From sequence record KM190144: a stretch of 64,000 bases of DNA, one strand, 5' to 3'. This DNA comes from Escherichia phage Av-05. This document shows positions 1,787 through 38,607 of this stretch, in pieces (position 1 is the stretch's first letter; the number at the start of each line of letters is the position of its first letter). The position numbers and the translations under genes are program-made. Under the pieces are notes generated by a model, which searched no databases, was not told where the DNA came from, and saw nothing but the letters and a program-made list of their open reading frames with translations.

Positions 1787-2184
1787 TTAGACCCCAAACT
1801 GTCGTTATAGATATCAACAAACTGGTTATCGAGGCAAACCTGTTTTCCTGCTTGTGTCTTGCTATAGCTTTTAATCTTTTTGTCAAGATTTTCTTTCAAT
1901 TGATTGTTGATTTCCCTCTCTTGCACTAACATGGTTGACAATTCATCTATCTTATCCTGCTGTTGCTTTTTAAAAGCGTTATTATGATCCCGAACTTGCT
2001 GGTTAATCCTCTCCCATTTAAGATCAGTGTCGCTGACACCTGCGTTGTACGACGATGTTAACTGGTCATTATACCAATGTTTTATCCCCAAGATACCACA
2101 GACGAGAACCACACCACACAAAACAACACCTATCTGTTTTATGTTCTTAGAAAAGAAAGTTAACAGCGTTTTAAACCATATCAT
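1783..2184 (-). CDS. i-spanin (Rz-like, N-terminal TM plus coiled coil)
   Basis: N-terminal hydrophobic segment IGVVLCGVVLVCGILGI, charged helical remainder; ATGA overlap with upstream gene. Confidence 0.6.
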   Translation of the reverse strand: MIWFKTLLTFFSKNIKQIGVVLCGVVLVCGILGIKHWYNDQLTSSYNAGVSDTDLKWERINQQVRDHNNAFKKQQQDKIDELSTMLVQEREINNQLKENLDKKIKSYSKTQAGKQVCLDNQFVDIYNDSLGSK

Positions 2185-3536
2185 GATATATCCCCATCAC
2201 ACTCAATAATGTTTTCAATTTTCAGTGTTGTTTTTCTGTTTTCAGAAATATTAATCTTATCAGTTATGATATCGTATTGCATCTCAGATGGATTACTTAT
2301 TGAGACATCTAAGAGAACTGCGCCAGGTTTATACGTTTCATATCCATAACCATCTGTCTTACCCTCCTTGCACAGGTATTCGTAATATTCTCTTGCCTTC
2401 TTCTCATCAACATAAAGGCTGAGAGTGCGAAAATTATTTGCTATATCTTCTTTGTAAAGCCCAACATAATGTGTATCTTTTGTTGGCATCATGAGATAGA
2501 AAACTTCAGCAGGACAAACTCCATATAGTTTTGTAAAGTATTTCCTGCCTGTTGCTTTTCTTAATCTTTGAAAGATATTAAACATATTAATTTTAGATAC
2601 ATCATTAAACGGCAACGGTTGCACAGGGGTAACATTTTTGTCTACCTGCTGGCAACAAGATTCTAATCTGTCCAGGCACTCAACCAAAGAATCAAGTGAA
2701 AACTGTTTTGTCTCATCAAAGATATCAGACAGTTTCATTCCGTACATCCCGCTAAGATGTGACTTTGCCGATTCCCAACTTTCTATCTGAAGGCTAGCAA
2801 TGGTCATGGACAGTTTCATTGTCTCTTTTTTCGAAATTGTATAGCCACGAGATTTGTATTTTTCAGATCTCAAAAGTGACATAATCGGGTATTCAGTCTT
2901 ATGATTTACAACTAAGACCCTTTGAGCGATATGTTTTAAGAAGTTGCTATCAAATTCCCACACACCATCTTTGAAGTTAAAAGCACCCATATTTATTGTA
3001 AAATCAAATTTGCTAAAGATATCTTCTGTTGTTTTGAACACATCCATAGCCACACATTGAAAGACAGGCTCTTGTCCAAAGTAAAACATCACACTCTTAT
3101 CTGTCACACCAACCTTTTTGGTTGGTAAATTATCATCTTCATCACCTAAATAATCGCATTCATTGTCATATTTTCTACCTCTAGAAAGAGGATCTGTAAA
3201 ATTTGAAAATGAGGTGTCGCCGTGATCAAGTTTATAGAAATTCCTAAATGCTATTTTTTGTTCTGAGGCCCAGCCATTTGTTTTCTCAGACAAATCATAC
3301 TTTCCTGACAAGAGTCTTTTATCCATCATGTACGCAATGAATATCTCAAGATTTTCCCAAGATGGGAAATACAAATCAAGATCGTTGACTTTACTATTAG
3401 AGAACAAAGAGGTTATTGCCCCGCCAGCTATCTTAACATTCAGCTTTGACAATAAATCATAAACACCTTTTGGTATAAAAGAGCGCAAAATGTCATACTC
3501 TCTTTGAAAATCTTCTTTTTTGAAAACATGCAACAT
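2181..3536 (-). CDS. Hypothetical 452-aa protein with nucleotidyltransferase-fold-like motif, co-transcribed with spanins
   Basis: Start at internal ATG 3536 with GGAGAG RBS; motif KIAGGAITSLFSNSKVNDLDLYF fits hG[GS]x(9-13)DhDh of Pol-beta superfamily; no lysozyme motif recognised. Confidence 0.5.
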   Translation of the reverse strand: MLHVFKKEDFQREYDILRSFIPKGVYDLLSKLNVKIAGGAITSLFSNSKVNDLDLYFPSWENLEIFIAYMMDKRLLSGKYDLSEKTNGWASEQKIAFRNFYKLDHGDTSFSNFTDPLSRGRKYDNECDYLGDEDDNLPTKKVGVTDKSVMFYFGQEPVFQCVAMDVFKTTEDIFSKFDFTINMGAFNFKDGVWEFDSNFLKHIAQRVLVVNHKTEYPIMSLLRSEKYKSRGYTISKKETMKLSMTIASLQIESWESAKSHLSGMYGMKLSDIFDETKQFSLDSLVECLDRLESCCQQVDKNVTPVQPLPFNDVSKINMFNIFQRLRKATGRKYFTKLYGVCPAEVFYLMMPTKDTHYVGLYKEDIANNFRTLSLYVDEKKAREYYEYLCKEGKTDGYGYETYKPGAVLLDVSISNPSEMQYDIITDKINISENRKTTLKIENIIECDGDIS

Positions 3537-3582
3537 CTTAACTCTCCTTGAGTACAAAACAAGATGCGTAAAGACTAGCACA

Positions 3583-3609
3583 TAAAGAAAAACCCCGCAA
3601 TAGGCGGGG
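3583..3609 (-). terminator. Rho-independent terminator at 3' end of tRNA operon
   Basis: Hairpin CCCCGC-AATAG-GCGGGG; minus strand T-run follows (plus-strand A-run 3583-3591). Confidence 0.6.
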
Positions 3610-3741
3610 TTAGGCATAGGAGAGGAGATTGATTGGATTATTATTATAGTTATTTGAGAAAAGTGGCGAAGGAACCTTTACATGTCGAGAGTGTCTTACC
3701 GTTTACTCAGCCACGACCTTCCTTAGTGTCCACTTTAATTC

Positions 3742-4067: not shown

Positions 4068-4143
4068 TGGTGTGACGGACAGGATTCGAACCTGTGACCA
4101 CCTAGTCTTCAGCAAGGCACTCTACCAACTGAGTTACCGTCAC
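4068..4143 (-). tRNA. tRNA-Phe (GAA), CCA encoded
   Basis: Acceptor GTGACGG/CCGTCAC, D-arm ACTC..GAGT, anticodon loop CTGAAGA, T-loop TTCGAAT. Confidence 0.8.
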
Positions 4144-4148
4144 ATGAT

Positions 4149-4225
4149 TGGTAGGCGATGAGGGACTCGAACCCCCAAAATTCAGGTTCTAAGCCTGACA
4201 TGTATACCAATTCCATCAATCGCCC
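4149..4225 (-). tRNA. tRNA with anticodon UAG (Leu codon family) but class I (short variable loop) architecture
   Basis: Acceptor GGGCGAT/ATCGCCT, anticodon stem TCAGG/CCTGA, loop CTTAGAA, 5-nt variable loop, T-loop TTCGAGT, discriminator A, CCA encoded. Confidence 0.6.
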
Positions 4226-4239
4226 ATCTATATTAACAG

Positions 4240-4431
4240 TTACGGTTTTCCGCGATACACAGAAATAGTTTTTCCATTGGCATTGATCACGTAGGCGGTC
4301 TGATCCTCAGACAAAAATACTTTTTGATCAACGCCGGAAATAGCTATAGACTTTTGATGAGCGCAATACCCAACAATTTTGCCACAAAAAATTTGTTCAT
4401 CATTTGGGGAGACTACTTTAACTGTTAACAT
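4240..4431 (-). CDS. Small hypothetical protein (about 64 aa)
   Basis: ORF track trimmed to internal ATG preceded by GAGGA; upstream part of track ORF overlaps tRNA-Pro. Confidence 0.3.
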   Translation of the reverse strand: MLTVKVVSPNDEQIFCGKIVGYCAHQKSIAISGVDQKVFLSEDQTAYVINANGKTISVYRGKP

Positions 4432-4473
4432 GGTATCCTCTGTACATTTCTGTTTTGATATGTATATGTTTGT

Positions 4474-4551
4474 TGGTCTGTCCGGTTGGATTTGAACCAA
4501 CGACCTGATCATCCCAAGTGACCCGCGCTACCCAAGCTGCGCTACGGACAG
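4474..4551 (-). tRNA. tRNA-Pro (UGG), CCA encoded
   Basis: Acceptor CTGTCCG/CGGACAG, D-stem GCGC, anticodon loop CTTGGGA, T-loop TTCAAAT. Confidence 0.8.
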
Positions 4552-4635
4552 AGAGATGTAGATTTTAATTGTCCCAGAATCTACAAACTGGTATCGCTGG
4601 CTAGGTGATATCTGTGACTTGATTAAGTCAAGAAT

Positions 4636-4726
4636 TGGCGGTTCCTGAAGGATTCGAACCTTCGGTGGGGAGATTCCTCCCAACGGCTTAACAGGCCGTC
4701 ACCATCGACCACTCGGTCAAAGAACC
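4636..4726 (-). tRNA. Class II (long variable arm) tRNA with anticodon GUU (Asn codons); identity ambiguous
   Basis: Acceptor GGTTCTT/AGGAACC, Ser-like D-arm ACC-GAGTGGTCGAT-GGT, anticodon stem ACGGC/GCCGT with loop CTGTTAA, 19-nt variable arm TGGGAGGAATCTCCCCACC, T-loop TTCGAAT, discriminator G, CCA encoded. Confidence 0.55.
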
Positions 4727-4735
4727 AGAATATTT

Positions 4736-4812
4736 TGGTGGATCTGGTTAGATTCGAACTAACAATCCCTCGATTAAAAGTCAAGTGCCTTAAACCATTT
4801 GGCTACAGATCC
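4736..4812 (-). tRNA. tRNA-Lys (UUU), CCA encoded
   Basis: Acceptor GGATCTG/CAGATCC, anticodon loop CTTTTAA, T-loop TTCGAAT. Confidence 0.8.
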
Positions 4813-5034
4813 TTTAAATTATCTTTAAAATAGCTAATTACTCGCACATAATTAGCTATACGCAACAGCCCTCTAGGGAGGGCACACTAATGATAGATTA
4901 CGATTACATGACCATCATGAGTGTTTGACTTACGCCAGTAAAGAGCGGACTGCTCTGGGGTATCGGTAAGATGGTTGCAGCCATCCACCGAAAAATCACA
5001 CCAAGCAACTAAACAAGCTACATTAAAGATAACT

Positions 5035-5123
5035 TGGAGGAGGCTGACAGAATCGAACTGTCACCATATCTCTACAGCGGGACTGGGTTCAAACCAGCTT
5101 GTGCACCATGCACCCCAGCCTCC
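5035..5123 (-). tRNA. tRNA-Ser (UGA), class II, CCA encoded
   Basis: Acceptor GGAGGCT/AGCCTCC, anticodon stem GCTGG/CCAGT loop TTTGAAC, long variable arm, T-loop TTCGATT. Confidence 0.65.
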
Positions 5124-5201
5124 AAAAATAGCCTCTGCCGAGAAGATACACCCAACAAAGACGGCGCTCAGGTCCGAAGAAATCTGAGCCTTGACATACA
5201 G

Positions 5202-5295
5202 TGGAGGAAGATGCCAGACTTGAACTGGCACACCCATTTCTGGGTTACTATCTCCTTAGCAGGGAGACCCCTTACCAAATTAGGGTTAATCTTCC
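5202..5295 (-). tRNA. tRNA-Ser (GCU), class II, CCA encoded
   Basis: Acceptor GGAAGAT/ATCTTCC, anticodon stem TCTCC/GGAGA loop CTGCTAA, long variable arm, T-loop TTCAAGT. Confidence 0.7.
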
Positions 5296-5316
5296 AATAC
5301 CTTAGTAATTAAAAAC

Positions 5317-5406
5317 TGGTGGAGAAGGAGAGAATCGAACTCTCAAGCCGTTTTACCAGTCAGCACATTTCCAATGTGGTTTCGTCGCCAATCGATTTGC
5401 TTCTCC
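5317..5406 (-). tRNA. tRNA-Ser (GGA) candidate, class II, CCA encoded
   Basis: Acceptor GGAGAAG/CTTCTCC, T-arm GAGAG-TTCGATT-CTCTC, anticodon loop TTGGAAA with one mismatch in stem; D-arm irregular. Confidence 0.5.
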
Positions 5407-5415
5407 GTTTTAACT

Positions 5416-5491
5416 TGGCAGGGGATGGTTGATTCGAACAACCGATCACGGGGTCAAAGCCCGTTGCATTAGGCCACTATGCTAATCCCCT
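5416..5491 (-). tRNA. tRNA-Gln (UUG), CCA encoded
   Basis: Acceptor AGGGGAT/ATCCCCT, D-stem GCAT/ATGC, anticodon stem ACGGG/CCCGT loop CTTTGAC, T-loop TTCGAAT. Confidence 0.8.
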
Positions 5492-5492
5492 T

Positions 5493-5574
5493 TGGCACGA
5501 GAGTGAGGAATCGAACCCCTTAGTCACTGGTTTTGGAGGCCAGCCTTCACCCAGTGAAGTTACGCTACTCTCAT
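5493..5574 (-). tRNA. tRNA-Trp (CCA) candidate with atypical, extended D-arm region
   Basis: Anticodon loop CTCCAAA followed by ACC as in E. coli tRNA-Trp; T-loop TTCGATT; acceptor ATGAGAG/CTCTCGT; 79 nt before CCA. Confidence 0.5.
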
Positions 5575-5597
5575 TAAAAACTATTTTCGGAATGGGT

Positions 5598-6140
5598 TTA
5601 TATATAAAACGCCAACATCACTCTTTCTCTTGAGAAAGCTCGGTCTTCAGGAACAACACTCTTCAGTTTCCAACCAACATAAATTCGCCAGTAAAATTGT
5701 TTTCCAAACAGTCTGAAAGACGGGACAAACGCGAATAAACCCCACGCATTGTCATTCCACATCAGCAAGTAGCCTTGTTGATTATCCTCCACATCAGAGC
5801 TTACATGGATGTTTCCTTTCCACTTTGTCACAGATGTAATTTCACGCCCAAGTGCGTGATAGGAGAAATTGTAGGCTTTATTTCTCCACAACCAAGCAAC
5901 TCGTTGCAGATAAACACCAAAACTCCCTATCTTGCGAACTTCTGCCCATCTCTCTATGTGTCCTTTATCACCATCTATAGGATTATCATATGTTTCCATC
6001 CACCTGAAAATATAAGGTAGATGCCCTGTCTTCTCATTATAGAACGGAACAACAAAAGGAGCCAGAATAACACAGAGAACCGACATAACTGGGTCAAGAG
6101 GTGCTAACAGAATCCACGATAAATATTTCAAGTATCTCAT
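5598..6140 (-). CDS. Hypothetical protein (180 aa, hydrophobic N-terminus) embedded in tRNA cluster
   Basis: ORF track; no recognisable motif. Confidence 0.45.
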   Translation of the reverse strand: MRYLKYLSWILLAPLDPVMSVLCVILAPFVVPFYNEKTGHLPYIFRWMETYDNPIDGDKGHIERWAEVRKIGSFGVYLQRVAWLWRNKAYNFSYHALGREITSVTKWKGNIHVSSDVEDNQQGYLLMWNDNAWGLFAFVPSFRLFGKQFYWRIYVGWKLKSVVPEDRAFSRERVMLAFYI

Positions 6141-6367
6141 GCAGGATCAAGCCTAGATATAATGTACTGGTTTAAATCTGAATATGGGAAGATACTTTCA
6201 AAGATAACCTGTTTAAATCTGAAACCGCACAAACCGAAAAGTACCTTCTGACACTCCCCAAAAGAACAATCTTTACCAACTTTTATCACAACCGTATCGG
6301 CAACCTGCACACTTTCTATCTCTTTAGGTTCATGATGCCGTACTATGATTACTTTAGAAACCATCAT
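6137..6367 (-). CDS. Hypothetical protein (76 aa)
   Basis: ORF track; 4-nt overlap with downstream ORF suggests coupling. Confidence 0.4.
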   Translation of the reverse strand: MMVSKVIIVRHHEPKEIESVQVADTVVIKVGKDCSFGECQKVLFGLCGFRFKQVIFESIFPYSDLNQYIISRLDPA

Positions 6368-6492
6368 ACTCGTCCGTATTAAAGCCTTCTACTAAAGATA
6401 GAAGATGTCTAGGGTTGGACCGCAAACTCAACCCCATGGAATTTGTTACGGTCTTCAGTTGACCCAAGCGGATTTCATTGACATCTTTTAGA

Positions 6493-6567
6493 TGGAGCAT
6501 CCAGAGGGTATCGAACCCTCGACTTCAGCTTGGAAGGCTGTAGTTTTCCCAATTAAACTATGGATGC
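6493..6567 (-). tRNA. tRNA-Gly (UCC), CCA encoded
   Basis: Acceptor GCATCCA/TGGATGC, D-stem GTTT/AAAC, anticodon loop CTTCCAA, T-loop TTCGATA. Confidence 0.75.
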
Positions 6568-6572
6568 ATATT

Positions 6573-6648
6573 TGGTGGGAGTGGTAGGCTCTGCCCCTAC
6601 GTCCTCTCGATTATCGGTCGAGCGATCTACTAACTGATCTACACTCCC
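6573..6648 (-). tRNA. tRNA-Ile (GAU)-like gene with non-canonical T-loop and C33
   Basis: Acceptor GGGAGTG/CACTCCC, D-arm GATC-AGTTAGTA-GATC, perfect anticodon stem CTCGA/TCGAG with loop CCGATAA, T-arm GTAGG-GGCAGAG-CCTAC lacks TTCGA, CCA encoded. Confidence 0.45.
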
Positions 6649-6716
6649 AAACTGTACTGGCCCAACAACCACGATTGGAGGGTATCGTCACACATCAAAG
6701 CCAGTACAGATTTAGT

Positions 6717-6806
6717 TGGTGTGCCGTGATAGAGTCGAACTACCCGAGTCCCTTTCGAGACAGGAGATTTACAGTCTCCCCCGCTACCCCTACGGTCTAA
6801 CGACAC
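6717..6806 (-). tRNA. tRNA-Tyr (GUA), class II, CCA encoded
   Basis: Acceptor GTGTCGT/ACGGCAC, anticodon stem GGAGA/TCTCC loop CTGTAAA, long variable arm, T-loop TTCGACT. Confidence 0.75.
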
Positions 6807-6807
6807 A

Positions 6808-7155
6808 TTAACCTTGTTTGAATTGAACAATATCCGTCGAGAACGGTTTAGCTGCCTTAATGGGAGCTTTTTCTGAGTTATCTTTTTCGAGTAACTCTTC
6901 GTTTTCCTCATCAAAGTAATCAGAAAGCATCTGCTCACCTTTCTCAATAACATAGCGAGCAATATTTTCTCTGATATTGTCTTTTGTATTCACATTCTTC
7001 ATCAAATCCCTAAGAACCTGATGAGCTTCAGGAATCATTGCAATCAGATTCGTTTTCAAATCTAGGATATTTTTCTCTAACTGAATTGCATTAGATTCCT
7101 CTTTCAGAGGACGACCTTTTCCTCTTCTACGTTTTGTAAGCTGCTTAGTAGCCAT
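6808..7155 (-). CDS. Hypothetical basic protein (about 116 aa; MATKQLTKRRRGKGRPLKE...)
   Basis: ORF track trimmed to ATG at 7155 downstream of a consensus promoter; the longer track ORF overlaps tRNA genes. Confidence 0.45.
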   Translation of the reverse strand: MATKQLTKRRRGKGRPLKEESNAIQLEKNILDLKTNLIAMIPEAHQVLRDLMKNVNTKDNIRENIARYVIEKGEQMLSDYFDEENEELLEKDNSEKAPIKAAKPFSTDIVQFKQG

Positions 7156-7174
7156 TTTAAAACCCCACTTAATG

Positions 7175-7203
7175 ATATTATCAAATAAAAACATATCTGT
7201 CAA
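7175..7203 (-). promoter_or_regulatory. Sigma70-like promoter (TTGACA-17-TAATAT)
   Basis: Minus strand -35 TTGACA at plus 7198-7203, 17-nt spacer, -10 TAATAT at plus 7175-7180. Confidence 0.6.
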
Positions 7204-7240
7204 GTGGTATTTTAACATATTTACCAAGAAATTGAAAGTT

Positions 7241-34036: not shown

Positions 34037-34229
34037 GCAACCCTCGCTTGTGCCTGTACATTGCTAAGGGCCATACAGAACTCACTATAAAGCATTTCCA
34101 TGCCCAGCCCCATGCAGTTTTTGGTGCATATACCTGCTCAAGTATTTTACTATTCTCCATCTCTGCGGTATGTACAAACCATACAGCAATATACAATGTA
34201 ACTATAATGTAGATAAAGCCATTAATCAT
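34011..34229 (-). CDS. Small membrane protein (72 aa)
   Basis: ORF track; hydrophobic N-terminal half. Confidence 0.35.
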   Translation of the reverse strand: MINGFIYIIVTLYIAVWFVHTAEMENSKILEQVYAPKTAWGWAWKCFIVSSVWPLAMYRHKRGLHEEKTGTA

Positions 34230-35283
34230 TCATCTTATCCCAGCACATTTGTTGCGCTGTCATCAAAACATCGGCAGCAAAGTTAAGATCTGTTGTCTTC
34301 GGTAAATGCGTGTTCTTGTACAGAGTGTTACGAATATAATCATCCTTCTCTTCTGCCCAAGCCAAGAGCTTCTCCAAAGACCATGCACCATTCCTGATTG
34401 CAAGAAGCTCCTGAGCATCAGGTCTTTTTACTAAGACTTTACCTTCTGCTAAGATCTCCTCAGCCATACGCATCAATCTTACCAAATGGAGGGCATGTTT
34501 GCAATCGTACCCGTACTTTTCTTCTAACTCATGCCGGACCGGATTTCTGTTTTCAACCCATGCCCAGTAGTTCTTATGCTTTTCCTTCGCTTGTTTATGG
34601 TCATCTGCCAGATATTTAACGATTAAAATTGGCTTACGTTTCTTATCCTCGTCAGAGAACTGCTCGTATGGAACTTTACGAATAGAACCATCAGAGTTAA
34701 ACAAACCAGCGTTGTCATGTGTACCAATCACACCATAGATATTATCACCCATCGGCAAAAAGACACACAACTTATTAAGGTCATCCAGCATTTTCTGGAA
34801 GTCTTTATGTTTTGTAAGATTATCATCCATCCACGAGTGTGTCAAGCGCATGAACTCTTTTTGTGTTGGTTGCTCTTTAGGTTGCGGGTTATTAATCCAT
34901 TTATTATGGCCTTTGATACGCTTAAGTTGCGCCATCGCGTACCCAGAAAATGTAAAAGCAACTTTGCTTGATAGAAGTTTTGGCGCTTGCTCGCGTAGGT
35001 ACTCGTAAACATCTGAAGTTTGCAGAATGTCACCTCTATCAACAAACATAAGCTCGATAATGTTTGGGTTCATATCAACGAACAGCTTCATATAGTTTGT
35101 TAGCTCATACAGCTTACCATCCTCTTCATCAATAAGAGTCATCTCCCTGTCAACGAAAAATGGGGTAAGAATGCTTTTAGGCTCTGCACAATAAATTCCG
35201 CGAATATCCACATCGGATGTTGGCAAGTTAGTTCCATAGGCAATACTGCCGGAGTAACAACGCATTAGTTCTAGTTTCTTCAT
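34222..35283 (-). CDS. Nucleotidyltransferase-fold (Pol-beta superfamily) protein (353 aa)
   Basis: Classic motif GSIAYGTNLPTSDVDIRGIY (GSx(9-13)DhDh) at N-terminus, helical C-terminal domain. Confidence 0.6.
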   Translation of the reverse strand: MKKLELMRCYSGSIAYGTNLPTSDVDIRGIYCAEPKSILTPFFVDREMTLIDEEDGKLYELTNYMKLFVDMNPNIIELMFVDRGDILQTSDVYEYLREQAPKLLSSKVAFTFSGYAMAQLKRIKGHNKWINNPQPKEQPTQKEFMRLTHSWMDDNLTKHKDFQKMLDDLNKLCVFLPMGDNIYGVIGTHDNAGLFNSDGSIRKVPYEQFSDEDKKRKPILIVKYLADDHKQAKEKHKNYWAWVENRNPVRHELEEKYGYDCKHALHLVRLMRMAEEILAEGKVLVKRPDAQELLAIRNGAWSLEKLLAWAEEKDDYIRNTLYKNTHLPKTTDLNFAADVLMTAQQMCWDKMND

Positions 35284-37093: not shown

Positions 37094-38338
37094 TTAGAAT
37101 AACATATCTCTGCTGATTGCTTTACGAATAGCATCAATACGGGCTACTCGCACAGCCTCACCAATCTCTTTACCCTTCTTACCTTTTTCCAGAAGGGGTT
37201 TTGTTATAGCTTTAGAATCAACTTTTGTCATAGCGTCGTAGGCTTCCAACAAAATATGACCCTGAGGATAAGGTTTATGTCTAAAATCACCACCTCTCCC
37301 TTTAGCATCACAATAACACGCATCTGCAAGTGTGTAAACCTTTATTTTCTGATCAGCTTGTCCAGCAGCTTCAAATATTTTCATGATGCTTTTTGGTTTC
37401 AAACCGTTGTTACCATCTTTGGGGGAGATGGCGTGCACTTTTGTGTGATTTTCCGCAACATATTTTGCCGTGTCACGATAGATATTATAAATCTTCAACC
37501 TTTCACACAAGGATTGGATAACATCTACACCAGCTTTTTCATGACCATGAAGATTACCATTGTCCTTATGAGTCACAGCTTTGCCAAAATCATGGCACAG
37601 CACAGCAAACTTGGTCAGTGGATCAGCTCCTAATTCATCAGCAACCCGTAACGCTAGAATTGTATGGGTGTAAGCATCCCCTTCTGGGTGATGTTCTTTA
37701 GGTTGTTGCACACCACGTAGGGCTTCCAGTTCAGGGAGTTCGCCAATACGTCCCATATTGACAGCAAAAGATCTGAAATAACCACTCTTTAAGGCTTTCA
37801 ACATTTCCTTCCATTTACGCTCGGCGCTTATTTCTGCCAAAGAGTGTCGGTTGTCATAAGCCAGTTTAAAAGTTTCTGGATGGATATGCCATTCTTCCCC
37901 AAGCTGGGCTTTAAATCTAAACAGGCGTAGAATACGTAATGGATCTTCAATAAATGCCTGTGATGTATGACGTAATGTTTTAAGTCCTAAGTCAACCTGA
38001 CCACCAAAAGGATCTATAATTTCACCACTCTCAACATCCATCGCCATGGAATTGATGGTTAGGTCTCTACGTGCCAAATCCTCTTCCAGAGTTACATCTG
38101 GACTAAAGCATACCTCAAATCCTTTATGGCCTTCACCTGTTTTTCTTTCTGTGCGTGCAAGAGCGTACTCTTCTCTTGTTTCTGGGTGAAGATAAACTGG
38201 AAAAGATGCGCCAACTTGTGTGAACCCTCTTTTCAACATCTCTTCATGCGTAGCACCAACAACCACATAATCACGGTCTGATATTTCACGACCTAACAAT
38301 TTATCTCTTACTGCGCCACCTACCAAGTATACCTTCAT
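37094..38338 (-). CDS. cca: CCA-adding enzyme (class II tRNA nucleotidyltransferase with HD phosphohydrolase domain)
   Basis: N-terminus MKVYLVGGAVRD...DRDYVVVG...RDLTINSMA matches bacterial Cca head domain; HD-type motif LCHDFGK; start at ATG overlapping upstream stop (ATGA). Confidence 0.85.
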   Translation of the reverse strand: MKVYLVGGAVRDKLLGREISDRDYVVVGATHEEMLKRGFTQVGASFPVYLHPETREEYALARTERKTGEGHKGFEVCFSPDVTLEEDLARRDLTINSMAMDVESGEIIDPFGGQVDLGLKTLRHTSQAFIEDPLRILRLFRFKAQLGEEWHIHPETFKLAYDNRHSLAEISAERKWKEMLKALKSGYFRSFAVNMGRIGELPELEALRGVQQPKEHHPEGDAYTHTILALRVADELGADPLTKFAVLCHDFGKAVTHKDNGNLHGHEKAGVDVIQSLCERLKIYNIYRDTAKYVAENHTKVHAISPKDGNNGLKPKSIMKIFEAAGQADQKIKVYTLADACYCDAKGRGGDFRHKPYPQGHILLEAYDAMTKVDSKAITKPLLEKGKKGKEIGEAVRVARIDAIRKAISRDMLF

Positions 38339-38607
38339 TTCTTCGCCCACGTATTCATATAATTAACAATATCTTTTACGGCTCTCTTTCCGTCTAGTGG
38401 ATAAACTATGTCATCGCTCATCCCACCGTGTTTTAGCATTGCTACCAGTCTAGTATATACCTCTTTTGGTCTTTTGCAAGTTCTTTTCTTCCATTTATGA
38501 CCGTCTGGGGAGTACTCCTTATCTTCAAGAGAGATATGAAGTATATCCCCTATAAACTCTTTAGCCTGTGTGCTGTAAAGTGGACGGTGGAATATGTAGA
38601 ATTTCAT
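38335..38607 (-). CDS. Hypothetical protein (about 91 aa) translationally coupled to cca
   Basis: Track ORF trimmed to ATG after AGGAGCAAGCA. Confidence 0.45.
   Translation of the reverse strand: MKFYIFHRPLYSTQAKEFIGDILHISLEDKEYSPDGHKWKKRTCKRPKEVYTRLVAMLKHGGMSDDIVYPLDGKRAVKDIVNYMNTWAKK

Follow-up and report, generated by a model that had tools for sequence, protein, structure and literature searches.

A gene in the tRNA cluster of Escherichia phage Av-05 (sequence record KM190144) combines the leucine anticodon UAG with a variable loop of only 5 nt, so that the long variable arm, which is the hallmark of class II tRNAs, is missing. A preliminary description of this DNA had left two readings side by side, a phage-adapted leucine tRNA and a tRNA of different aminoacylation identity that reads CUN codons. 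Which amino acid such a molecule carries, and why a phage would keep it in this form, are the questions considered here for a stretch of 64,000 nucleotides of the phage genome, referred to below as the window.

Gene, sequence and fold

The gene is 77 nt long including the genome-encoded CCA and lies on the minus strand, a detail absent from the preliminary description; the boundaries assigned by ARAGORN are exactly those listed in Table 1. The 5′ part of the RNA, up to the end of the anticodon stem, reads GGGCGAU-UG-AUGG-AAUUGGUAU-ACAU-G-UCAGG-CUUAGAA-CCUGA, and the 3′ part, starting with the variable loop, reads AUUUU-GGGGG-UUCGAGU-CCCUC-AUCGCCU-A-CCA. The Rfam model RF00005 matched positions 4152-4225 of the minus strand with 60.7 bits as compared with a gathering score of 29 (E=1.5e-11), and the match spans model positions 1 to 71 of 71, is untruncated, and includes no pair flagged as non-canonical. 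All universal tRNA features inspected are intact: U8, A14, G18G19, U33, the T-loop UUCGAGU, and the CCA end. ARAGORN, Rfam and the sequence agree on the structure that had been described before, a standard 74-nt cloverleaf with a 5-nt variable loop, anticodon UAG, a discriminator A and an encoded CCA, and neither the covariance model nor the ARAGORN output offered an alternative fold with a long variable arm or another anticodon.

Table 1. Features of the tRNA-Leu(UAG) gene and its surroundings in the window
Feature	Coordinates	Strand	Basis or remark
Class I tRNA-Leu (short variable loop), anticodon UAG, 74 nt plus encoded CCA	4149..4225	-	ARAGORN, Rfam RF00005, sequence, family covariation
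Anticodon UAG within loop CUUAGAA	4189..4191	-	Sequence, Rfam; position 37 is A
5-nt variable loop AUUUU; final base U48 is the partner of A15 (Leu-type Levitt pair)	4177..4181	-	ARAGORN
Positions 8-26: U8, G9, Leu-type D-arm AUGG AAUUGGUAU ACAU with A14, A15, G18G19, A20a	4200..4218	-	
Discriminator A73 (window 4152), then genome-encoded CCA	4149..4152	-	Sequence
Phage tRNA cluster: 14 ARAGORN tRNAs and one Rfam-only tRNA-like gene, small ORFs interspersed	4068..9659	-	ARAGORN, Rfam
tRNA-Phe(GAA), 5 nt downstream of the Leu gene	4068..4143	-	ARAGORN, Rfam; spacer from sequence
63-aa ORF, function unknown, phrog_3909, between tRNA-Pro and tRNA-Leu	4240..4431	-	Orthologue is a CDS in vB_EcoM_TH18

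Single-sequence folding misses the cloverleaf: the minimum free energy structure (−24.2 kcal/mol, z=−1.39) is of another kind, and the cloverleaf scores −21.7 kcal/mol. For this reason the fold was based on covariation, using a gap-free alignment of 30 distinct 74-nt family members that include the window tRNA. When the class I cloverleaf is laid over these members, 99.5% of the cells form standard pairs, and compensatory changes affecting both sides are found in 17 of the 20 pairs (n=30 homologues). The covariation score of 0.866 compares with 0.255 for shuffled alignments, none of 500 of which reached 0.866, and with at most 0.19 when the partners were slid. The nucleotides U8, G9, U48 and A73, none of them demanded by the search pattern, are invariant in 30 of 30 members. 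The acceptor stem of the window copy begins with a G1-U72 wobble, which in the closest relative is G1-C72; since G1-U72 occurs in 5 of the 30 members, it is not a conserved pair. The same alignment revealed that position 13 covaries with column 22, two positions before the 3′ strand of the D-stem (G-U in 22 members, C-G in 5 and A-A in 3). The two positions may form a tertiary pair or an alternative pair of the D-stem, or the pattern may simply reflect clade structure.

The Leu gene is followed after 5 nt by the tRNA-Phe gene, and the two tRNAs probably share one precursor transcript. Five sigma70-like sites scoring at least 10/12 were found in the cluster, all of them on the minus strand. Between positions 3000 and 10000 the window shares about 95% identity with Escherichia phage vB_EcoM_TH18 as well as with three sibling isolates (Caudoviricetes; Vequintavirinae); the tRNAs are unannotated in the TH18 record.

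A family of short tRNA-Leu genes in phage tRNA arrays

The closest relative of the gene is found in vB_EcoM_TH18 at the same place in the cluster, beside tRNA-Phe and on the terminase side, with 73 of 74 identities and C72 instead of the U72 of the window copy. In the Salmonella phage PVP-SE1 the same place is occupied by gt004, a 77-nt UAG gene with 61 of 74 identities; this phage has in addition an 86-nt tRNA-Leu(UAA) gene, not found in the window, whose variable region measures 12 nt. BLASTN against phage genomes produced full-length homologues annotated as tRNA-Leu in PVP-SE1, 4MG, GAP31, KB57 and others, and partial matches in T5-like, Vibrio, Aeromonas and even Leptolyngbya phages. With the tRNA as BLASTN query, nothing was found in 5,426 complete E. 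coli genomes, even at E=10.

The gene is an orthologue of these annotated phage tRNA-Leu genes and a homologue of the tRNAL1 of T5 and BF23. For the latter type the defining features were a length of about 74 nt without the CCA, a variable loop of 5 nt with U48 as its last base, a D-loop of the Leu type, the motif CUUAG(A/G)A in the anticodon loop, A73, and location in a phage tRNA array, and the window tRNA has all of these features. BF23 tRNAL1 (GenBank AJ604530, anticodon UAG) is likewise 77 nt long and is also located within a phage tRNA cluster. Its CCA is encoded, its variable loop of 5 nt has U48 as the last base, position 73 is A, its D-loop fits AAUUGG(U/C)AUAC, and its anticodon loop is CUUAGAA. 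The two RNAs share 54 of 74 positions, the acceptor and anticodon stems differing through compensatory changes, and their carriers belong to different groups, BF23 being a siphovirus of the Demerecviridae and the window phage a myovirus of the Vequintavirinae. According to the BF23 record, tRNAL1 has CUA as 'codon recognized', and swapping its anticodon for CUA gives an effective amber suppressor. The suppressor activity implies that the BF23 homologue undergoes processing and charging and that E. coli ribosomes use it; the note in the record names no inserted amino acid, and amber suppressors can be mischarged. According to that note, the function of BF23 tRNAL1 was tested.

The extent of the family was assessed by scanning IMG/VR with a pattern consisting of a Leu-type D-loop, CUUAG and a T-arm separated by a free spacer of 12 to 42 nt, which gave a biased sample of at least 120 loci. 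Among the Leu(UAG) genes that ARAGORN identified in the loci listed, 44 of 122 are short (75-78 nt, 38 distinct) and 78 are long. The variable-region lengths of the matches listed are bimodal, 4-6 versus 10-18 nt, and every 5-nt variable loop among them ends in U. Short forms exist for other leucine anticodons as well, the matches listed including 18 short and 8 long genes with CAA and 15 short and 23 long genes with UAA. The loss of the arm is restricted to leucine among the matches listed, Ser and Tyr tRNAs largely keeping theirs: in the at least 120 loci, short genes account for 80 of 203 Leu, 3 of 85 Ser and 4 of 45 Tyr genes. This distribution matches the published rule that LeuRS is arm-independent and SerRS arm-dependent. 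Independent origins of the short form were also considered; among the matches listed the nearest neighbor is another short gene for 32 of the 38 short Leu(UAG) genes, a count that points to one or a few spreading lineages, the sequences being too short to resolve the matter.

When 185,579 species of bacteria and archaea, each represented by one genome, were scanned for the short form only, 25 places matched; almost all of them are on MAG contigs, and almost all belong to dense arrays of 4 to 36 tRNA genes. Cells are almost devoid of short Leu(UAG) genes outside dense tRNA arrays. Five of the MAG contigs (L136, L138, L143, L145 and L156) carry arrays in which three or four different short (74-76 nt) Leu isoacceptors (UAG, CAA, UAA, GAG or CAG) stand side by side, so that the whole leucine set is arm-less there. 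The class I shape is exceptional for bacteria and routine in phage tRNA arrays, and since the feature is common in such arrays it is less surprising than the preliminary description implied. No paper describing phage class I tRNA-Leu as such was found in the searchable literature. Arm-less phage Leu tRNAs are a large family that is barely discussed in searchable papers, and the combination of a short arm for leucine only, near-confinement to phage-type arrays, and A37 may be an under-reported generalization.

Leucine-type identity elements of the core

The window tRNA was aligned with a comparison set from E. coli K-12 consisting of one tRNA gene per isotype and all five tRNA-Leu species, fetched by coordinates. 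Identity over the whole molecule separates leucine weakly (57 matches to leuU and 53 to metU); it is the D-arm that discriminates. Over positions 8-26, which comprise U8, G9 and the D-arm, every one of the five tRNA-Leu of E. coli agrees with the phage tRNA at 12 to 16 of 19 positions, and no other E. coli isotype does so at more than 9. The string common to the phage tRNA and E. coli tRNA-Leu is U8 G9 ... G12 R13 A14 A15 U16 Y17 G18 G19 U20 A20a.

Leucine identity in E. coli has been ascribed to A73, the A15-U48 Levitt pair, G18G19, A20a, and the tertiary pairs that join the D-loop to the T-loop, the anticodon and the long variable arm not being needed and arm-less variants being active (PMC9976931). 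The corresponding tertiary core is present in the phage tRNA, with U8:A14, A15:U48, G18G19 and A20a, and its T-loop is able to form G18:U55, G19:C56 and U54:A58. All five E. coli tRNA-Leu and the window tRNA have in common U8, G9, A14, A15, G18G19, A20a, U48, A73 and a similar T-arm, and tRNA-Leu3 (leuW) also has the same anticodon UAG. Two features set the phage molecule apart: the E. coli tRNAs are class II molecules of 85-87 nt with a variable arm and the window tRNA has the 5-nt loop, and the G37 found in the CUN-reading E. coli tRNA-Leu is replaced by A37. Three other identities were considered and rejected: for alanine, the pair present is G3:C70 and not G3:U70; for histidine, G-1 is missing; for serine, the long arm is missing. 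The reading of the gene as a phage-adapted leucine tRNA gains support from the D-arm and tertiary nucleotides, the Vequintavirinae source, and the annotated phage homologues. From these identity elements, the tRNA would be charged with leucine by the host LeuRS.

One bacterial precedent of this shape differs in several respects. The type I tRNA-Leu(CAA) of Streptomyces coelicolor also has a 5-nt variable loop and occurs alongside class II tRNA-Leu in an organism with a single LeuRS; it differs from the window tRNA in being chromosomal, in its anticodon CAA, and in having C48 where the phage tRNA has U48 (PMC6614811). The enzyme that charges it is a Streptomyces LeuRS equipped with a special leucine-specific domain, and A73 is no identity element in that system; E. 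coli LeuRS, described as charging only type II tRNA-Leu, could not charge it (PMC6614811). Animal mitochondrial tRNA-Leu(UUR/CUN) are class I as well, with an identity determined by A73 and A14 and no long arm (PMC9976931), but they are served by an organellar LeuRS and have a degenerate elbow; the likeness is one of architecture only. Since the C-terminal domain of LeuRS touches the backbone of the variable arm in crystal structures (PMC12360207), an arm-less tRNA may be charged less efficiently. Reliance of E. coli and Salmonella phages on arm-less Leu tRNAs is a test of the claim that an E. coli-type LeuRS handles only class II tRNA-Leu.

The anticodon loop is another point of divergence from the host. 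The loop is CUUAGAA in the phage tRNA and UUUAGGU in E. coli leuW, so that C32, A37 and A38 (window 4189-4193, minus strand) stand in place of U32, G37 and U38, and three of the four loop positions outside the anticodon differ. Of the 30 homologues, 26 have A37 and 4 have G37. The G37 of the CUN-reading host tRNA-Leu is the site of m1G37. Given A37, modification to m1G37 by TrmD would be impossible on the phage tRNA, and as A37 replaces the modified host nucleotide the decoding properties of the two tRNAs may differ.

Meaning and demand of the CUA codon

The ORFs of the window were aligned by tblastn to 90 kb of PVP-SE1. CUA codons align to leucine in PVP-SE1 orthologues at 37 of 49 positions (76%), and no other residue occurs more than three times. 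Those 37 leucines are encoded in PVP-SE1 by CUG (16), CUU (9), UUG (4), CUC (4), CUA (3) and UUA (1). The conservation of CUA is similar to that of other codons, namely CUU (67% Leu), UUG (62% Leu) and GUU (63% Val). When the phage nicotinamide phosphoribosyltransferase (NAMPT) is compared with PDB 9w5x, CUN codons correspond to leucine at 15 of 24 positions and to L, F, I or V at 21 of 24; the alignment of the phage CCA-adding enzyme covers two CUA codons, which are opposite F and M. No signal of CUA reassignment was found in the PVP-SE1 orthologue alignments or in the comparison of NAMPT with 9w5x. CUA means leucine in this phage lineage, and the alternative raised in the preliminary description, a CUN-reading tRNA of different aminoacylation identity, finds no support in these alignments.

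The window has 40% GC and uses CUA, CUU and CUG at 7.1, 21.9 and 14.0 per thousand codons, respectively, as compared with about 3.9, 11 and 53 per thousand in E. coli K-12 (Kazusa table). In the comparison of codon usage with the likely host that had been proposed as a check, CUA and CUU are about 2-fold commoner and CUG is four-fold rarer in the phage. The U34 of the host counterpart is modified to cmo5U. A tRNA with U34 would serve exactly the codons that are enriched.

Proposed function and alternative explanations

Taken together, we regard it as very probable that the gene encodes a functional class I tRNA-Leu that has lost the long arm, has kept the elements required by LeuRS, is charged by this enzyme and reads CUA; annotation as tRNA-Leu(UAG) can be made with good confidence. 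The tRNA would be transcribed together with its neighbors in the cluster on the minus strand, processed to the CCA end that the gene encodes, and presumably charged with leucine by the host LeuRS. During infection it would read CUA, and probably the other CUN codons through U34 wobble, and in this way could supplement or replace the scarce host tRNA-Leu(UAG) for the AT-richer phage genome.

A Leu-decoding tRNA of this kind could instead be kept mainly for evasion of defenses, the lost arm and altered loop hiding it from tRNases or tRNA-modifying toxins of the host or a prophage so that translation of leucine codons continues after the host class II tRNA-Leu have been destroyed. We consider this unlikely, despite several precedents. 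The T5 tRNA-Lys rescues infection from PARIS, a case in which a phage tRNA with changes near the anticodon defeats a tRNA-cleaving defense (PMC11464382), and anticodon-loop mutations in phage tRNAs have been found to rescue infection from tRNA-cleaving defenses (PMC10264068). Septu/PtuAB is reported as a defense that cuts the variable loop of tRNA-Tyr (PMC13096335), and a prophage terminase is reported to fragment tRNA-Leu (PMC11610961). The three loop positions that differ from leuW, the presence in the phage of a CCA-adding enzyme and an RlaP-like RNA-repair nucleotidyltransferase, and the near-confinement of short Leu genes to phage-type tRNA arrays would also be in keeping with evasion. 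Against it, the retention of arms by phage Ser and Tyr tRNAs fits simple LeuRS tolerance equally well, the approximately 2-fold enrichment of CUA and CUU alone can explain why the gene is retained, and nothing within the window links the Leu tRNA to a specific defense. We also know of no nuclease that selects bacterial tRNA-Leu by its long arm. The selective reason for the loss of the arm is something that we infer, and a narrower proposal, that the loss is itself a counter-defense trait selected against a bacterial or prophage effector recognizing the arm of class II tRNA-Leu or the host-type loop, with the short form keeping leucine decoding going once the tRNA-Leu of the host has been inactivated, appears distinctly improbable to us. 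If it were correct, charging of type I tRNA-Leu in vivo would be within the reach of an ordinary proteobacterial LeuRS, at odds with the description of EcLeuRS as an enzyme for type II molecules only. The arm-less family may also help to understand what molds the tRNA complement of phages, be it a tolerant host synthetase or the avoidance of immunity directed at tRNAs.

Two further explanations would deny the molecule its role in leucine decoding. One is that it carries another amino acid to CUN codons, by codon reassignment or deliberate mistranslation as in the case of the yeast mitochondrial tRNA-Thr(UAG). A class I shape joined to a leucine anticodon, the failure of EcLeuRS on another type I tRNA-Leu (PMC6614811), and the G1-U72 wobble of the window copy could be taken in this sense, but the wobble is not conserved, the D-arm is leucine-specific, and identity elements of the anticodon-independent synthetases are missing (the third pair is G3:C70, and there is neither G-1 nor a long arm). 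The codon alignments described above, in which no second amino acid is prominent at CUA positions and CUN codons of NAMPT correspond mostly to leucine, make this explanation very improbable. The other, to which we assign the lowest probability of all, is that the gene has no part in translation, being either a tRNA-like element or a pseudogene in decay, and serves as a decoy, as a primer or to signal the processing of neighboring genes. Annotated 'tRNA-like RNAs with unknown functions' do exist in T5-like clusters, the window itself includes a degenerate tRNA-like gene, and the minimum free energy fold is no cloverleaf. The universal tRNA features of the Leu gene are nevertheless all intact, its four helices are kept by compensatory substitutions in 30 diverged homologues that conserve the anticodon and A73, and the homologue from BF23 takes part in translation as a suppressor.

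Other tRNA genes and enzymes encoded in the window

The cluster includes a gene with the reverse anomaly, a class II shape with the anticodon of a class I isotype. This 91-nt 'tRNA-Asn' (4636-4726, minus strand) has the anticodon GUU, G73, an encoded CCA and a long variable arm with stem GGGAG/CUCCC and loop GAAU. It is conserved as a 92-nt gene in TH18 and as the 85-nt gt008 in PVP-SE1, the arm of the latter being GAGU-GAAA-ACUC; a few IMG/VR contigs also carry GUU genes with long arms, which show compensatory changes. GUU and G73 fit AsnRS; the long arm together with G2:C71, C11:G24 and G73 resembles the identity set of SerRS; and the T-arm is identical to the one in E. coli tRNA-Tyr. The long-arm tRNA-Asn(GUU) may be more novel than the Leu gene.

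The degenerate tRNA-like gene mentioned above is located at 6576-6648 on the minus strand, with CCA at 6573-6575. It was found by Rfam (53.4 bits) and missed by ARAGORN. The anticodon loop, CCGAUAA (GAU), has C33 where tRNAs universally have U33; G18G19 are missing from the D-loop AGUUAGUA, and the T-loop reads GGCAGAG in place of UUCRANU. This gene recalls the RNAs of the BF23/T5 tRNA region that are annotated as tRNA-like with unknown functions. The genes for Ser-UGA (5035-5123), Ser-GGA (5317-5406) and Tyr-GUA (6717-6806), all on the minus strand, are class II calls of ARAGORN that fall below the Rfam tRNA gathering score, and the D-stems of Ser-GGA and Tyr are weak or partly unpaired in the ARAGORN drawings. 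Several phage tRNAs of the cluster look structurally divergent.

The window also encodes several proteins potentially related to RNA metabolism. A predicted CCA-adding tRNA nucleotidyltransferase (37094-38350, minus strand) includes a PolyA_pol head followed by HD and RNA-binding domains; its best match among solved structures is the Bacillus stearothermophilus enzyme 1miv (E=4e-21), and the PVP-SE1 orthologue is annotated as tRNA nucleotidyltransferase. Coordinates 34222-35283 (minus strand) code for a 353-aa protein of the RlaP family ('RNA repair pathway DNA polymerase beta family'), and a 478-aa protein encoded directly downstream of the tRNA cluster (2181-3617, minus strand) has a weak PHROG match to a nucleotidyltransferase (2e-5). 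The occurrence of these nucleotidyltransferase-like proteins together with the RNA ligases annotated in PVP-SE1 suggests a tRNA/RNA repair toolkit in this phage group.

The tRNA cluster adjoins a gene for a 571-aa nicotinamide phosphoribosyltransferase (NAMPT/NadV; 10571-12286, minus strand; PDB 9w5x, E=6e-124). The NAMPT gene also adjoins the tRNA cluster in PVP-SE1, where it is followed by one for a ribose-phosphate pyrophosphokinase, and the locus is a predicted phage NAD+ salvage module.
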